Origin: a virus
IMG/VR virus record: IMGVR_UViG_3300005289_000004
Span: 1 to 64,000 of that record
Direction: 5' to 3' (one strand)
Length of the DNA stretch: 64,000 nucleotides
In this document: positions 5,298-59,242 of the stretch, piece after piece
Position numbering within the stretch: the first letter of the stretch is position 1
Layout: the number at the start of each line of letters is the position of its first letter
Notes under the pieces: model-generated
What the model was told of the DNA's origin: nothing
The model's input: only the letters and a program-made list of their open reading frames with translations
Databases searched by the model: none
Position numbers and translations under genes: made by a program

Positions 5298-6271
5298 ACA
5301 AGTTCTAGATTGGTTGGGTTAGGGTTTACACCCCTTAATCTATCACCTAAAGTTTTTTCTTTGAGATTATATGCTTTACTAGCCTCCCTGATACTGTCAA
5401 AGAAAATTCCTGTAGTAACATCTACAACTTTTCTGGCTAAAGGCTGCTGTCTATCTGTCCCCGATGGTGTGGTTAATGCTTTACCAACGTCCCAACCTAA
5501 ACTCTTTATCCGAGTCTCAAAAACACTCCGTTCTATATTAAATTCTCTACACCATTGCGCGGATGTCTGTGTCTTACCCCTATAGGTGATGTACAAATTT
5601 CTTCTTGTGTTATTAGCTTGTTCGATTGCTGTAGCCCATCTGCAATTGGAAGGTTCATAATCTCCGTTAACATCTTCCCTTTCTATAGAGTGTTGTGGAG
5701 TAGGTTTATACCCCATGTCCTCAAGGAAGTTCTCAAAGGAGCTTAACCATCTGTCACATACTTTTATACCCCTACCTCCATAGTGGTTATAAGAGCTATT
5801 ATTAGGATTGTTACACCTATTGCGTAAGCTGCACCAAGTTATATATTCTGTAGTGTTATCTTTACTGTGTCCATGTGTTTTTCGAGTTTTCTTAGTATTG
5901 TGTGTACAATTGTGCTTACAAAACTTAGTATTACCTGATTTTACGTTTGAAAATAATGTTGAAAACTCATTACCACACTTACATTTAAAATGTCCGTAGC
6001 TTATATTACCTACAACATCCCCCAAATAAATACAGTTTCCAACCTCAGTGTTTTTAACTCTTTGATATTTTCTTTTAGACCTGTTTCTTAGACAACCACA
6101 GCTTTTTGTTTTGTTTTTTACCACCCTATATACGTCTGTTTCAAACAAGTTACTACAATTGCATAAAAACTGAGCCTTATGACTATCTGTTTTGGAGTCC
6201 ACATATTTTACAAAAGTACAGGAGCCTACTATATCACCCTCTTTAAAATTTAAATATTTGTTGTTTGCCAT
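5294..6271 (-). mobile_element. Free-standing HNH homing endonuclease
   Basis: CxC/SCGC repeats, YGGRGIKVCDRW..HSIER.DVNGDYEPSNCRWAT..QANN, C-terminal NUMOD1-like FDSIREA. Confidence 0.85.
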
Positions 6272-6339
6272 ATAAAAATACGGCTAACTTTTTGTGCTAG
6301 CCGTTCCAAAGATACTAAATAAGTTAGTAGTTACAAAAT

Positions 6340-6699
6340 TTACGCTTTTAGAGCCGCAATAACTTGATTTAAGCGTACTTTTAATGCGTTTGAAAGTGCG
6401 ATAGCAGTACTTAAGTCAGATGCGTCAGCAGTAGCAACGGTAGCAAGAGCCGCTACCGCAGTTCTTGATGCTGCACTGTCCCCTACATTTTGTGCTGTTG
6501 CCCATGTACCTCCATCTGGACTGAATTTAATAGTTGCTACGTCTGCATTACTGATAAGCCTTACTGTAGAGTTCTCAGGAAGAGTCTCTGTACCTGCTAC
6601 AATTGCTGCGTAGAGTGTAGGGTCTATTGCCTCGTCTACTGTGTAGAAAGCTGATGCTTTTTTAACTACTGTCTTAGAATTAATGATTGCTGATGCCAT
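6340..6699 (-). CDS. Putative head fibre/decoration protein
   Basis: Ala/Thr-rich; C-terminal helix DLSTAIALSNALKVRLNQVIAALKA resembles head-fibre trimerisation motifs. Confidence 0.5.
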   Translation of the reverse strand: MASAIINSKTVVKKASAFYTVDEAIDPTLYAAIVAGTETLPENSTVRLISNADVATIKFSPDGGTWATAQNVGDSAASRTAVAALATVATADASDLSTAIALSNALKVRLNQVIAALKA

Positions 6700-36113: not shown

Positions 36114-38168
36114 TTAGCGATAAGTTGTTATACGACCATGTTTGACAAATTTCTTTCCTTTTGGCTTATCTTTGACTTGTTTTAGGGGTTCTTTGATTGT
36201 TATGAGAGAATTTCCGTCACTTATGGCGGTATCATAATCGGTTCGGTCATTTACATCGAAGTCTAAACGGTCTTTAATTAGGCGTTTAAAGAATATTTTT
36301 TCCACATCATTGTAAGAACTCTCTACCATTTCTGTAAGATGTTCTTCTATGTACTCTTTGTTTTGTGGGGCTGCACCATACACCCAAGTCCCATCTGATC
36401 TTTGAGTTCCAAGTAAAAACTGTTCGTACCCATTTTCCTTAGCCCAATCAACCCAGTCAGTTGGCGAACGTTCTCCGAGCATTCTAACACCGTAAAACTT
36501 TAACCCCCAGTAGGTTTGCTTATGAAAATCTGGCTTATTATCCATACGACCAAGAAACATAGCTACAGGGCATCCGCTTTTTTCAGGGTCAATAATAGTG
36601 TACCTTCTTCTTATCATTATTGAGGCATCACTGCCCTTTTCTACAGTAGCATCGCTGTGTGCTATAGCATCAAGACCAGCACCGCCATAAGCAGTTCCTG
36701 TAGGTTTATACTTAGGTTTACCACCAATCTCACTTTTTTCAAACTGGTTAGGTTTATCGGGGAATTGTAGTATGTACCACAACCCTTTGGGGTCGTCTTC
36801 AAAAAATACAGTGCCATCAAACTTCTCCCTAAACCAACCTCTTCTTCCAAGTTCATCTTTTTCAGGGTCTTTACCTTCGGCTACCAATTGATCTTTTATA
36901 ACTTGTAATTGTGCTTCATGCCTTTTCCTGTCGAAGTGTATCTTCTTATTGGCACTCTCAAATACTTCTTTATCGTTCCAAGGATTCTGTCTTATCTCCT
37001 CTTCTAAGGCTTCAAGATCATTCTCCAATGCCTTTCTTGTATTAGCTTGATACTGTTTAGCACCTATAGTTGGGTCGAGGCAACCAATGGTTTCAAGATA
37101 TTTTGTCTGTTCAGGTGTTGGTGTGTCCCACACAGATTCCCCAAATGCGCCAATCCAACCGTCATACCCGAAATAAGCGGGCAACATTATACGATAAAGT
37201 CCTGTTTTTGTTTCCCCTAAGTAGTTAGCTTTAGATTGATCGCTTGACTGCCACGTAATTTGATACTCAGCTCCACCAGATTTTTTATCATTCACAGTGG
37301 TAGGCATAAATATCTTTCCAGTTATTCTAGCCCCTTTCTTGACGCACTTTGCAGCAATTGATAAGTATTTGTTGATCGGAGTTTCAGTTGGGAACTTACC
37401 CCCTTCATCGATAAGTAAGTAAGCAAGAGCATATCCATCATAAGAGTTAAGGTCTGTATTTTCCCAAGATAGTTCATTATTAAGACCCTCCCCTTTAGTG
37501 GCAGACTTTTTTGTTTTAGTTATTCTGTCTGCTTGCTTCTTTAAAGAGAGAACCTGTTTTGGTGCAGTGTTACCCTCTTGTATGGGTTTTAAAAACTCCG
37601 GTAAATTTCCCAAAGCCTTAACAGCATATTGAAAAGCCTTACCAGCATCCTTTCCCTTTTTAGATACAATACCTAAGTTAGCGTTTCTTAGGGTTAGCAT
37701 CTTTAATAGTAAGGCAGACATAATCATTGAGGTAGCCCCCAACCTACGGGCTTTTAGTAACGTATGCCCCAGACAAGTCTTTGTATTATCACATATTTCT
37801 AAAAACCTGTAATAGTAAAGGGACGTGTCTCTATATTCTGGGTACACTCCTTCGGGTAATAAAAACCAGTTGAGGAAAAAGTAAAAATAGCTGTTTATGT
37901 AGGTTGGTTCTCCGTTTACATATAACCACATTCCTGAGTTTAGTCTCTCTACCTCTTCTACCAAATAATTTACTTGATCGGGATTATCATTTAACCTATC
38001 TTCCCAACCGCCTGACCAATCAAACTTCTCGTAATCAACTACCCTTGACCATTTCTGTTTTGACTTAGGTATCCCATAGCCTCTAATATCTTTAAGAGGC
38101 GGTCTTTTAGGGAACTCGTATTTTAACCCTTCTACATAATATTCTCCATCTACCCAGATTCCTAACAT
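36114..38168 (-). CDS. terL: Terminase large subunit
   Basis: LKARRLGATS (Walker A), LLIDEGGK (Walker B), MPTT coupling motif, AGLD and YDTAISDG nuclease motifs. Confidence 0.92.
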   Translation of the reverse strand: MLGIWVDGEYYVEGLKYEFPKRPPLKDIRGYGIPKSKQKWSRVVDYEKFDWSGGWEDRLNDNPDQVNYLVEEVERLNSGMWLYVNGEPTYINSYFYFFLNWFLLPEGVYPEYRDTSLYYYRFLEICDNTKTCLGHTLLKARRLGATSMIMSALLLKMLTLRNANLGIVSKKGKDAGKAFQYAVKALGNLPEFLKPIQEGNTAPKQVLSLKKQADRITKTKKSATKGEGLNNELSWENTDLNSYDGYALAYLLIDEGGKFPTETPINKYLSIAAKCVKKGARITGKIFMPTTVNDKKSGGAEYQITWQSSDQSKANYLGETKTGLYRIMLPAYFGYDGWIGAFGESVWDTPTPEQTKYLETIGCLDPTIGAKQYQANTRKALENDLEALEEEIRQNPWNDKEVFESANKKIHFDRKRHEAQLQVIKDQLVAEGKDPEKDELGRRGWFREKFDGTVFFEDDPKGLWYILQFPDKPNQFEKSEIGGKPKYKPTGTAYGGAGLDAIAHSDATVEKGSDASIMIRRRYTIIDPEKSGCPVAMFLGRMDNKPDFHKQTYWGLKFYGVRMLGERSPTDWVDWAKENGYEQFLLGTQRSDGTWVYGAAPQNKEYIEEHLTEMVESSYNDVEKIFFKRLIKDRLDFDVNDRTDYDTAISDGNSLITIKEPLKQVKDKPKGKKFVKHGRITTYR

Positions 38169-42370: not shown

Positions 42371-42682
42371 CTATTTAATTTGTTTTCCTTCAACATTACG
42401 TTTCACTCTATCAGCAGTTCTTTTATTTAACCACATAAGAGACTCTTCCAATTTGGTTATTACCAATGCGTTCTCTCTACACGGAAACTTAGATTGCAAA
42501 TAGTTCATCCTTGCAATAAGGACTTCTAAAACCTCCTCATTAGTTGTACCATCACTTACAGTCATCAACTCAACCGAACCCTCTTCTTTTGGTTCTTTTT
42601 GAATAAACTGGATTGTCTGTCCGTTCCTTGACTCTTCAAAGTTTGAAGCAACGTACCTGTGTCCTTCTACTAGTTCTTGCAT
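42371..42682 (-). CDS. tad1: Tad1-family anti-defence sponge (Acb2/Tad1 domain)
   Basis: TIQF..DGTTNEEVLEVLIARM..FPCRENALVITKLEESLMWLNKRTADRVKRNVEG matches the Tad1 C-terminal signature. Confidence 0.8.
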   Translation of the reverse strand: MQELVEGHRYVASNFEESRNGQTIQFIQKEPKEEGSVELMTVSDGTTNEEVLEVLIARMNYLQSKFPCRENALVITKLEESLMWLNKRTADRVKRNVEGKQIK

Positions 42683-42810: not shown

Positions 42811-43005
42811 TTACAGTAGAATTAGTTTTTCATCATTTATAAGTTCAGACTGCCAATCTCTTAAAAGATTTATTGCATGTTTTAATTCTTTCGCTCTAAC
42901 CTGATCTGTTAGAACTTCTTCTGGTTTAATGTAACCACCATCTGAAATGTCATACCAAAAACCATCTGTTGTGACAATTTCTTGTTCGTCTTTGTACTTA
43001 CTCAT
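42811..43005 (-). CDS. Hypothetical protein
   Basis: First ORF after promoter 43032; DGFWYDISDGGYIKPE. Confidence 0.6.
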   Translation of the reverse strand: MSKYKDEQEIVTTDGFWYDISDGGYIKPEEVLTDQVRAKELKHAINLLRDWQSELINDEKLILL

Positions 43006-43031
43006 CTTCTTTAATGTTTAACTTAACAATT

Positions 43032-43197
43032 CAAATATACGACTACTATATGACATTACCAAATTTATTTTTATAAAGGGATAGCTTTACTTTTTCGTAT
43101 AGGATGTTAAGTTATAACTGTACTTGTGTCACCCTGTTAAAATAGGTATACTATTTCTGTATATATTTGCAATTGTAAAAGTAAAGTAGTACCTTTG
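43032..43197. promoter_or_regulatory. Divergent sigma-A-type promoter pair at the main strand switch
   Basis: Minus: TTTG-N20-TATATTTG (43063-43032); plus: TTTG-N20-TACCTTTG (43166-43197). Confidence 0.75.
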
Positions 43198-43199
43198 CA

Positions 43200-43700
43200 T
43201 GTATAAGTAGTTGTTATATCAGGAGTGTAACATACCGCAGCTTAAAAGATATTAGAAAGGCCGATAAGTCGTCAAATAGGAACTCCTGATTCCTGATGTA
43301 CTTTGAAGCCTTTTCTGTTTTAAATATTTTATTTAAGCTGTTGTATGTAGTCGTTGAACAGCTTGGGATATAAGAAGCCCTTAAACAAAAACAACCGTTA
43401 AGAAAATAGGCTAAGAAATAAAGAGTTAGCAATGCTTACGCCAGCAACTAACGACCTGAATGACAGAAATGTTCAAACACTTAGACCGCCATTGAGAATA
43501 AGATTTAGCTTTGATTGAGATTTACGAGCTATTTGGGAGGGGTGATGGGTAGTTTTCTTATAGATTGTAACCTTTAGAACTTAGATCAGCTATAATGCTA
43601 GATTATTAATAAGGGTTAACTCAGGAAGGTTGGGATCAAGTATCTCTACATTCAGGGGTATAAGGCGGGAACTGTCTAATCAGCAACTAACGATCATATA
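43200..43700 (+). ncRNA. Candidate large structured non-coding RNA/leader
   Basis: No credible plus-strand ORF, downstream of promoter, many local and long-range complementary segments (see findings). Confidence 0.55.
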
Positions 43701-43706
43701 TAGGTT

Positions 43707-43925
43707 ATGTCAAGAAGTTATAAAAAGAGTGCAGTAATAAAAGATGGTGGGCATGAAGGTAAGAAACGCTTCAACCAAAACTTTAGGAGTAAAAATAAAA
43801 TACACATAAGGTTAGGTCTTGAACCCAAGTTGCCCAATGAAGTAGAAAATCAATACAATTTATGTGATTGGGGGTGCAGGTTTGAGAAGAGTCATCCCGA
43901 CTATAAAGTAAGAAAAAGAAAATAA
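43707..43925 (+). CDS. Small basic phage protein
   Basis: MSRSYKK..YNLCDW motif. Confidence 0.6.
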   Translation: MSRSYKKSAVIKDGGHEGKKRFNQNFRSKNKIHIRLGLEPKLPNEVENQYNLCDWGCRFEKSHPDYKVRKRK

Positions 43926-50761: not shown

Positions 50762-50873
50762 TATCTTTGTGCTGTTACAGTATCTCAATTTAAGTAACAG
50801 TAAGAAATTTAACACCCATTGCACCTAAAAGTGAGTTGAGATACACTGGCGGGAGTAGTGGGTTTATTATTTT
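50762..50873 (+). promoter_or_regulatory. Promoter (TATCTTTG) plus kissing-loop structured leader
   Basis: Two hairpins with complementary loops TATCTCAATT/AGTTGAGATA directly before the ATG. Confidence 0.65.
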
Positions 50874-51803
50874 ATGACACGCTCAGAAGAAATTTTAAAT
50901 GGGTTCAACGAAACTCATAACTACAAATACACCTATCCTAATTACGGTGCTAAGAACCTTCAAGAAAAAGTTACAATCGTCTGTCCTGAACACGGAGAGT
51001 TTGTTAAGTTCGGATATTGCCATTTGAGAAGAAAGCAAGGATGCCCCAAGTGTTCGCACATTGGTTTGTCAAGGTATACAGAAGAGGAGTTCATGGATAG
51101 CCTAATTAAAACTCACGGTTATCCGTTACCTTTTGAAATTTTGTCTCCGTATGTGGGTAATAAGGATGACATTATGATTAAGGATAAGTATGGTATTTGC
51201 AAAACTAAACCCTATAACCTTACACGAACCTCTTATGGTTCCTTACGAACTGCCGTAGATAAAACTGCGTACATGATTGCCAAGTTTAATGAAAAACACA
51301 ACTTCAAATACACTTACGACAATTTTGTGTACAAAGGTAATAGGGTACTAGGTACAGTCACTTGCCCTGAGCATGGGGATTTTGAACAGTTGGTGGATGT
51401 ACACTTAATGGGTTGTGGATGCCCTAAATGTGCAGACTCTAATAAGGTAAGCGGCTACGGGAGAAATGATTACATAAGGGTTTGTAAAGAAAGGGAGGCA
51501 AGTTTATACATCATATGCTGTTACAGCGAGGATGAGTTCTTTGTTAAAGTGGGTATTACATCTACAGGAGTGAATAAAAGATTTAGAGACAGAAGTGCGA
51601 TGCCCTATGAATTTTCTTCATTATTTGAAACTATAGGTGATCCTGCTGAAATTTGGGATTTAGAACTGAGCTTGAAAAGAAAATATAAAGGCAATACATA
51701 CCTGCCACAAGTTTATTTCAAAGGACAGACAGAATGCTTTACTTTTGAGACAGCAGAAAAAATGATTGAAGAAATTAAAAATAAATTTGTAAATGCGACA
51801 TAG
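50874..51803 (+). mobile_element. Homing endonuclease with Zn-ribbon repeats and C-terminal GIY-YIG-like domain
   Basis: 2x CPEHG.F..H..GCPKC; SLYII..FVKVGIT..RF..E..G.TECF. Confidence 0.8.
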
Positions 51804-58783: not shown

Positions 58784-59242
58784 TTATTCGTTCTCACCTT
58801 GCAGTTTGATTAACAATGCTAATCCATCAGTCTTTAATACTTGCGCTCTAGTCTTTCTATCTCCTTTCCAAAATACATGCGGATTGATCGTATAGTTCCC
58901 AAAGCTACCAGTAATTAAACCTTTCTTAATAAGGCTCTTTATATTCTTACTGATGTTGGTCAACCCTATATTCAACTCTTTACATATCTCTATACGTGAT
59001 GCTGTGGTTAGCTGTACAACTCCTGTATTGTACTCAGCTACTTCGCAGAACTTTACCAATAACTTTAAGTCGGATAGCTTAGTAAGTCCGTACAATGAAC
59101 TGATAAACTTTGTGTACGTCATAAAGAACTCCTCTGTTTCTATCTTAACATTAAACTGTTTGGTTGTTTCGATCAACCTTACTTCTCCTGTTTCGTAATC
59201 TACTGTTTCTGTGGTCTGTGATTGTGTTGTGAACTTTGCCAT
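58784..59242 (-). CDS. repL: RepL-family winged-helix protein
   Basis: VDYETGEV..EEFFMTY..ICKELNI..ISKNIKSLIKKGLI..YTINPHVFWKG. Confidence 0.8.
   Translation of the reverse strand: MAKFTTQSQTTETVDYETGEVRLIETTKQFNVKIETEEFFMTYTKFISSLYGLTKLSDLKLLVKFCEVAEYNTGVVQLTTASRIEICKELNIGLTNISKNIKSLIKKGLITGSFGNYTINPHVFWKGDRKTRAQVLKTDGLALLIKLQGENE

Follow-up and report, generated by a model that had tools for sequence, protein, structure and literature searches.

The HK022 put RNAs and the lambda PR'-tR' leader are promoter-proximal phage leader RNAs that govern read-through, and the ROOL and GOLLD RNAs, which are about 500 to 800 nucleotides (nt) long and have many conserved helices, frequently neighbor tRNA genes in phages or prophages. 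Only a small number of large structured RNAs are known in phages, and hardly any of them from phages of the Bacteroidota, bacteria with unusual promoters and with ribosomes that largely ignore Shine-Dalgarno sites. Here we analyzed a 64,000-nt stretch of phage DNA (the window), bases 1 to 64,000 of the 75,640-bp IMG/VR record IMGVR_UViG_3300005289_000004, whose ends repeat over 129 bp and which looks like a circular assembly. At a switch of coding strand, a first-pass annotation made from the letters alone had proposed a pseudoknotted noncoding RNA (ncRNA) of about 500 nt, at positions 43200 to 43700. Our results indicate that this gap probably holds a real element that is structured at the RNA level. 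As a whole, the observations are best explained, we believe with moderate confidence, by a two-module structured RNA that forms the leader of the rightward transcript.

Relatives of the phage were gathered from IMG/VR and the JGI metagenomes by terminase alignment; on the terminase side they are syntenic with the phage, and most also show a long gap where the coding strand switches. The structural comparison draws on L084, a 74-kb IMG/VR contig whose large terminase (TerL) is 52% and whose DNA polymerase is 62% identical to that of the window phage, and on L091, with a TerL that is 59% identical. The closest TerL relatives (57 to 82% identity) sit in Logan assemblies, and more distant ones were used for comparing structures. 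In the window, the run of leftward genes is bounded at 43005 and the rightward genes begin at 43707. The annotated scarcity of open reading frames (ORFs) is borne out, as 43006 to 43706 contains no credible ORF and each of its six frames is interrupted by stops in the standard code; a recoded or hidden ORF is ruled out, since no frame becomes open throughout when TGA or TAG is recoded. The consensus promoter annotated just ahead of the element is likewise present as an exact match (Table 1), and judging from the geometry of Bacteroidota promoters, rightward transcription presumably starts at about 43203.

The 5' domain (module 1, 43212 to 43348) lies just behind this promoter, and its conserved part, of about 120 nt, is common to the window and L091. 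Two hairpins, H1 and H2, are predicted, with a conserved linker between them. In L091 the H1 stem reads UACAGA/UCUGUA around the loop GAUGGGAAG, so that five of the six stem pairs are changed on both sides and still pair, and the apical stem of H2 reads GGUU/AACC (two double changes) around the loop UCCCAUC. Across the stems of module 1, pairing is kept at 7 of 10 pairs that are doubly changed in L091, compared with 0 to 1 in controls with slid partners. The minimum-energy fold of L091 gives the H1 and H2-tip hairpins unprompted. The two loops are also complementary to each other: the 7-nt loop of H2 in the window, CUCCUGA (43283 to 43289), can form 9 Watson-Crick pairs with the loop of H1, and the corresponding run in L091 comprises 8 Watson-Crick pairs. 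Loop-complement runs within the next 120 nt were reached in 9 of 20,000 shuffles of the window (p ~5e-4) and 51 of 20,000 shuffles of L091 (p ~3e-3). Complementarity is thus kept in both phages though the letters differ, which is the pattern of covarying loops known from phi29 pRNA. The register of the contact is off by one base between the phages, and it was therefore not counted column by column.

Module 1 can also fold in another way. Pairing of the conserved linker (UUAAAAGAYAUU) with the U-rich tract at 43317 to 43333 would extend H2 to a rod of about 50 pairs, a form that appears in the folds of both the window phage and L091. In the window the rod and hairpin P1 of the 3' domain are mutually exclusive, both using 43334 to 43341; because the rod takes up one arm of P1, there are at least two exclusive folds. 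The stability of the region is exceptional: no other 200-nt segment of the 75.6-kb genome, on either strand, is as stable as 43151 to 43350 on the + strand, whose z score against its own shuffles is -5.8. The 5' 195 nt (43198 to 43392) fold with a z score of -4.37, the + strand of the 5' region folds 10 kcal/mol more stably than the - strand, and the 5' domain of L091 has a z score of -3.8.

The 3' domain (module 2, 43334 to 43690) aligns collinearly with the intergenic region at the syntenic position in L084, with a conserved part of about 330 nt. Eight blocks are common to the two phages, comprising the P1 hairpin, CAAAAACAACC, TAGCAATGC, GCCAGCAACTA, AACCGCCATT, GGGAGGGGT.ATGGGTAG, and AGGGGTATAAGGC-N8-TCTAATCA. 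The insertions and deletions that separate the two sequences (1, 4, 5, 7, and 19 nt) are not multiples of three, the short ORFs differ, and the first genes downstream are not homologous; the conservation of module 2 is therefore noncoding and independent of the gene that follows. Two long-range helices, Pa and Pb, are supported by compensatory changes. Pa pairs GAAAAU with GUUUUC in the window and UAAGUU with GACUUA in L084, with 3 of 6 pairs doubly changed and pairing kept, and Pb pairs CCUGAAU with AUUCAGG and CCUCAAA with UUUGAGG, respectively, with two double changes. Since the arms of both helices are flanked by gapless invariant blocks, the alignment has no freedom at these places. Pa and Pb cross, and the predicted fold is thus a pseudoknot.

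The remaining helices of module 2 differ in how well the comparison supports them. Pd (UUGAU/AUCAA in the window, UUAGC/GCUGA in L084) has three double changes, in a stretch that is less firmly aligned. The candidate closing helix Pc can form in both phages (6 pairs, with one bulged C in the window), and all of its positions are invariant, so that it contributes nothing to the covariation. The hairpin at 43425 to 43452 appears in the minimum-energy folds of both phages. The helix between 43480 to 43496 and 43532 to 43549 is weakly supported, 9 of its 14 pairs being invariant and many being G-U pairs, which would be mismatched on the - strand. Apart from the G-rich block that supplies the 3' arm of this helix, no G3-N-G3-N-G3 site occurs on the genome's + strand.

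Pairs of the seven-helix model were counted in the window and L084, with partners slid by 1 to 3 columns as a control. All 46 of 46 pairs form in both phages and 11 are doubly changed, compared with 0 to 1 in the slid controls. A listing of all stems of at least 5 pairs, formable at aligned columns of the two sequences, gave 29, against 5.2 +/- 3.1 after shuffling of the columns. Nine stems had at least two compensatory changes, against 0.93 +/- 1.1, and none of 200 shuffles reached nine; control stems in parallel orientation gave 0 such stems, and the - strand gave 4. The covariation between homologues was given more weight than fold stability, on which the evidence is divided. Taken together, the spacing between promoter and H1 (14 nt from the -7 box in the window; 15 nt from TATCTTTA to the first hairpin in L091), the strand-biased stability, the G-U pairs, and the compensatory changes fit an RNA read from the + strand. 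We regard it as probable, from these comparisons, that the element is a new structured phage RNA.

These results also bear on the individual motifs of the first-pass annotation. The hairpin AAGCTGTT (43335)/AACAGCTT (43357) is present as placed, as are the long-range pairs TAAGAAAA (43399)/TTTTCTTA (43553), which lie inside 16-nt arms that are 81% complementary, and CCTGAATG (43455)/CATTCAGG (43649); L084 supports all three. The hairpin TAACCTT (43568)/AAGGGTTA (43611) was correctly located but is imperfect, with one extra G, and the pairing of TTAGAC-CGCC (43481) with GGCGG (43664) and GTCTAA (43674) exists in the window but breaks at 3 of 6 positions in L084. A 13-nt direct repeat is indeed found at 43442 and 43681, but its motif occurs only once in L084. 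The proposed pseudoknot survives in altered form: covariation supports a crossing of 43402-07/43552-57 with 43455-61/43650-56 rather than that of the helices that had been named. Taken alone, the listed motifs are no evidence beyond chance, because such 8-mers are common; the 1 kb around the element contains 27 inverted pairs. What does stand from the earlier proposal is a noncoding, conserved, structured element downstream of a promoter.

Table 1. Promoters, predicted RNA features, and first rightward ORF at the strand switch (window coordinates; helices are given from the first to the last paired position)
Feature	Coordinates	Strand	Description
Leftward promoter, TTTG-N20-TATATTTG	43032..43063	-	Exact pattern match; structural/TerL operon
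Rightward promoter, TTTG-N19-TACCTTTG	43166..43197	+	Exact TTTG-N19-TAnnTTTG match
Predicted hairpin H1	43212..43232	+	Stem 43212-17/43227-32; 9-nt loop AUCAGGAGU
Predicted rod form of H2, about 50 pairs	43230..43348	+	Folds with z scores of -4.37 and -5.80
Linker with conserved UUAAAAGAUAUU	43233..43253	+	Block TTTAAAAGAYATT common to L091
Predicted hairpin H2	43254..43316	+	Basal stem 43254-60/43310-16; apical GGAA/UUCC 43279-82/43290-93
Predicted hairpin P1 (UAAGCUGU/ACAGCUUG)	43334..43365	+	8 pairs kept in L084: 6 invariant, 1 single change, 1 double change
Candidate closing helix Pc	43377..43666	+	GCC(C)UUA 43377-83 with UAAGGC 43661-66; encloses 3' domain
Predicted long-range helix Pa	43402..43557	+	43402-07 with 43552-57; 9 pairs in window, 43399-07/43552-60
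Predicted hairpin in conserved blocks TAGCAATGC ... GCCAGCAACTA	43425..43452	+	Six counted pairs invariant in L084
Predicted long-range helix Pb	43455..43656	+	43455-61 with 43650-56
Candidate helix, block AACCGCCAUU with G-rich block UUUGGGAGGGGUGAUGGG	43480..43549	+	43480-96 with 43532-49; 14 pairs formable in both phages
Predicted helix Pd	43511..43639	+	43511-15 with 43635-39; nested in Pb, crosses Pa
G-rich block GGGAGGGGUGAUGGGUAG	43535..43552	+	1 of 18 positions differs in L084
Conserved 3' block (A)GGGGUAUAAGGC-N8-UCUAAUCA	43657..43687	+	L084 alignments; stops 20 nt short of first ORF
First rightward ORF	43707..43925	+	ORF list; 72 aa, basic; outside RNA element

According to the reading that we favor, host RNA polymerase would read the element rightward from the promoter at 43166 to 43197, and the element would constitute the first 460 to 490 nt of the rightward (early/replication) transcript. 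In module 1, the loop of the small hairpin would kiss the apical loop of the long hairpin through 7 to 9 pairs, or H2 would instead extend into the rod of about 50 pairs, absorbing the U-rich tract and one arm of P1. These competing folds, together with the U-rich tract, could decide whether the transcript ends early, is cut, or continues; in L084, a plain terminator-like hairpin stands at the place corresponding to module 1. Module 2 would consist of P1 and, after it, a domain of about 290 nt with a long-range helix as its closure and the crossing helices Pa and Pb inside. Placed before whichever gene comes first, it might act on stability or translation or bind a factor. We favor a leader acting in cis because no terminator closes the element, because conservation extends to 20 nt before the start codon, and because the genes downstream are unrelated.

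Among described RNAs, the HK022 put and lambda leaders appear to resemble the locus in lying directly behind an early promoter, in having two hairpins and U-rich tracts, in having a terminator-like hairpin nearby (H2 here, and a G+C-rich hairpin followed by six U residues in L084), and in keeping their position ahead of varying genes. Compared with the put RNAs, however, the element is much larger, its hairpins are larger, its loops are complementary and covary, and a 290-nt pseudoknotted domain follows. Two complementary loops that covary between relatives while the primary sequence drifts also recall phi29 pRNA; unlike that RNA, the element has no Rfam match, pairs its loops over 7 to 9 nt rather than 4, stands at the head of an operon, and belongs to a phage with an ordinary large terminase of 684 aa.

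Several observations weigh against the favored reading. The terminator scan found no terminator-like site at the 3' end of the element or elsewhere in the window, so that no discrete RNA is defined. The fold of the whole interval 43200 to 43700 is no more stable than shuffles (z scores of -0.83 and -1.31 for the + and - strands, respectively), and the same holds for the 3' 317 nt (43390 to 43706; z score of +0.25), leaving only the 5' domain far more stable; module 2, with z scores of +0.1 to +0.25 (window) and -0.46 (L084), has no stability beyond chance. Unremarkable stability is common for RNAs that fold via tertiary contacts or partners. Each module is supported by one relative, and the sequences used for choosing the structures also served for counting them, a circularity that the slid and shuffle controls correct in part. 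Module 2 stands behind a different 5' region in L084, and L091 has module 1 without module 2; the annotated single, uniform RNA of 500 nt is therefore not a conserved unit but resolves into two separable modules, and neither relative has both. A loose genome-wide descriptor of kissing hairpins matched 10 times, compared with 8 to 16 in shuffles, which leaves the architecture unsupported as a genome-wide class, although the pairs at 43212 and 50770, taken singly, do exceed shuffles. The role of the element is something that we purely infer; that its job is to regulate the rightward operon in cis is a tentative proposal that we hold at a little under even chances.

The covarying loops would also suit a stand-alone ncRNA that is cut from the leader and acts in trans, its loops joining molecules into dimers or rings in the manner of phi29 pRNA or the ROOL and GOLLD assemblies. 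Should H2 adopt the rod form with its roughly 50 pairs, the tip would, on geometric grounds, be too far from H1 for contact within one molecule; in addition, module 2 is conserved ahead of unrelated genes, and relatives have RNA genes at the same locus. Contact within one molecule is nevertheless feasible when the 21-nt linker is unpaired, the terminator scan gave no signal for a 3' end, and conservation to within 20 nt of the start codon suits a leader, and we therefore consider a processed, trans-acting RNA, though it is the chief competitor of the leader reading, unlikely. The first-pass annotation had compared the element in size to ROOL and GOLLD. It may resemble them as a large ncRNA in a phage context, with a pseudoknot and at a locus with tRNA arrays in relatives, but kinship is not supported by the covariance models: no Rfam model, including those of pRNA, ROOL, and GOLLD, matches within 43006 to 43706 at E values up to 10. 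The element is also shorter (about 330 plus 120 nt), is unremarkable in stability, and is known from two or three phages only, with seven helices formable in both the window and L084.

A function at the level of DNA appears improbable. A transcript from 43166 to 43197 could prime replication, as at ColE1 (RNA II), the T7 primary origin, and mitochondrial CSB II, with the G-rich block forming an RNA-DNA hybrid; this conserved block occurs nowhere else in the genome, the cumulative GC skew changes direction between 42 and 44 kb, and a family-A DNA polymerase is encoded 4.7 kb downstream. The likeness to ColE1 RNA II/RNA I extends to a structured transcript of about 500 nt, a fixed promoter, 7-nt kissing loops, and a Pol I-type polymerase. 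Here, however, both loops are on the + strand rather than on sense and antisense RNAs, and the pattern scan found no Bacteroidota-type promoter on the - strand inside 43200 to 43700. The turn in skew is uninformative because it coincides with the switch in gene direction, and a RepL gene at 58784 to 59242 on the - strand (152 aa; Pfam RepL, E value of 2e-6, above the cutoff) offers a more conventional candidate for the origin; for these two reasons an origin or primer role is less likely. There are no iterons, the 13-nt repeat is not repeated in L084, and the compensatory changes in the long-range helices favor a folded RNA over a priming site.

We give very little credence to the idea that the conserved G-rich block marks a short upstream ORF (uORF) regulated by the surrounding RNA. 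The block (GGGAGGGGU.AUGGGUAG) is nearly invariant and includes what would be an unusually strong ribosome-binding site (GGAGGGG, 2 bases, then AUG GGU AG, with the start at 43545), and by our own reading of the matches, the same 16-mer elsewhere in IMG/VR mostly resembles a ribosome-binding site followed by a start codon. Such sites are rare in the genes of this phage, however (7 of 72), the uORF has 10 codons here and 19 in L084, with peptides that diverge after 2 to 3 residues, and the conservation covers third codon positions and then stops, which suits a constraint on RNA; the block can moreover pair with AACCGCC in both phages. Equally remote is an ordinary spacer between divergent promoters, in which the similarity to L084 and L091 would be leftover ancestry or recent exchange. 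The whole interval folds no better than shuffles, only 2 to 3 sequences are at hand, and there is no homologue among 2.7 Mb of fetched loci. This explanation must nevertheless contend with conservation that is block-wise despite proteins only 52 to 62% identical, with 18 doubly changed pairs against 0 to 1 in each slid control, and with the most stable 200-nt window of the genome.

Searches for further members of the family were negative within their scope. Rfam 15 covariance models, those of OLE, 6S, tmRNA, RNase P, and group I introns among them, gave no match in the whole window at gathering scores and only chance-level matches in the L084 homologue at E values up to 10, and blastn against GenBank phages found no similar DNA. 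Scans of IMG/VR with patterns for three conserved blocks returned only the L084 contig, other matches lacking the remaining blocks nearby. A polymerase-based scan gave 18 loci at 52 to 63% identity, none with the element except the L084 contig itself (recovered as L218), and a scan of genome contigs gave only relatives at 30 to 39% TerL identity. The two-sequence profile found no further copy in the 2.7 Mb of fetched loci, none of 80 loci collected via the neighboring phrog_2428 gene was syntenic, and we found no description of such an RNA in the literature. A diverged second copy at 66.7 to 67.3 kb of the genome (- strand) was considered and rejected as weak: neither single-sequence blastn/nhmmer nor the two-sequence profile (E values up to 10) recovered it, it has only short motifs in common with the element, and its fold has a z score of -1.25.

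Other leader-like regions were noted in the window and its relatives. At 50762 to 50873 of the window, a second promoter-proximal pair of hairpins has the complementary loops UAUCUCAAUU and AGUUGAGAUA (z score of -2.5). It lies behind a promoter box at 50762 to 50769 and is followed by a U-rich tract and the start codon, at 50874, of a 309-aa gene; its letters are unrelated to those of H1 and H2, and its loop complementarity was reached in 85 of 20,000 shuffles. The leader of L086 (TerL 48% identical; 5560 to 5800, - strand) folds with a z score of -3.4 and has a candidate complementary loop pair; in sequence it shows no likeness to the window. Upstream of the conserved domain of L084, at 6150 to 6420 (- strand), are two -7 boxes (TACCTTTG and TATCTTTG), a tRNA-like T-arm motif (GGGTTCGACTCCC) on which ARAGORN makes no call, and a terminator-like G+C-rich hairpin followed by TTTTTT.

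The TTTG/TAnnTTTG promoter pattern has 8 matches in the window, compared with 2.7 expected, and none of 100 shuffles reached 8. The region of the leftward promoter is conserved by blastn in L086, L099, and L087. It is flanked by a perfect 10-nt inverted repeat, TAACTTAACA (43019 to 43028) and TGTTAAGTTA (43105 to 43114), which may be a DNA-level operator, with one arm upstream of the leftward promoter. The TerL gene (36114 to 38168) lies in the leftward run, and its product is 27% identical to those of the Cellulophaga phages phi46:3 and phi18:3 and of Flavobacterium and Maribacter phages. Given these relatives, the lack of Shine-Dalgarno use, and the promoter type, the host is very probably a member of the Bacteroidota. 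The rightward genes include those for an HD phosphohydrolase and the family-A DNA polymerase (785 aa). The product of the first rightward ORF has no Pfam or PHROG family match, and a relative that is 40% identical is encoded elsewhere in L083.

The same strand switch bears tRNA genes in some relatives, namely 17 in L087 (4179 to 6793), of which 15 run the same way as the early operon, and a single tRNA-Arg gene in L083 (7309 to 7383); the window has no tRNA or tmRNA. The phrog_2428 gene at 42371 to 42682 (- strand) has 151 IMG/VR relatives at 55 to 80% identity, on contigs where no other nearby gene is common with this phage, and is thus a widely exchanged small gene. The DNA polymerase of L084 (150 to 3425, - strand) has 1,091 aa owing to one large insertion, and several of the terminase relatives (P0043, P0048, P0053, and others) have about 1,035 aa with Hint and LAGLIDADG domains; among these phages, inteins seem to be common.

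Beyond the leader itself, a bolder and rather doubtful extension is that the element represents an undescribed family of large RNAs in podophages of the Bacteroidota, in which a promoter-proximal pair of hairpins with covarying loops would serve as a fold-switching gate for early transcription or a handle for self-assembly and would be coupled to a 290-nt pseudoknotted domain with a function of its own, such as the binding of a factor from the host or the phage. That each module is common to a different relative suggests that RNA modules are shuffled between phages like genes. If the favored interpretation is true, the very start of the early operon would be occupied by a leader RNA in which both a loop-loop contact and a long-range pseudoknot covary. 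This RNA would then be a candidate for a new Rfam family and would provide a testable handle on how the first transcript is controlled in these phages.

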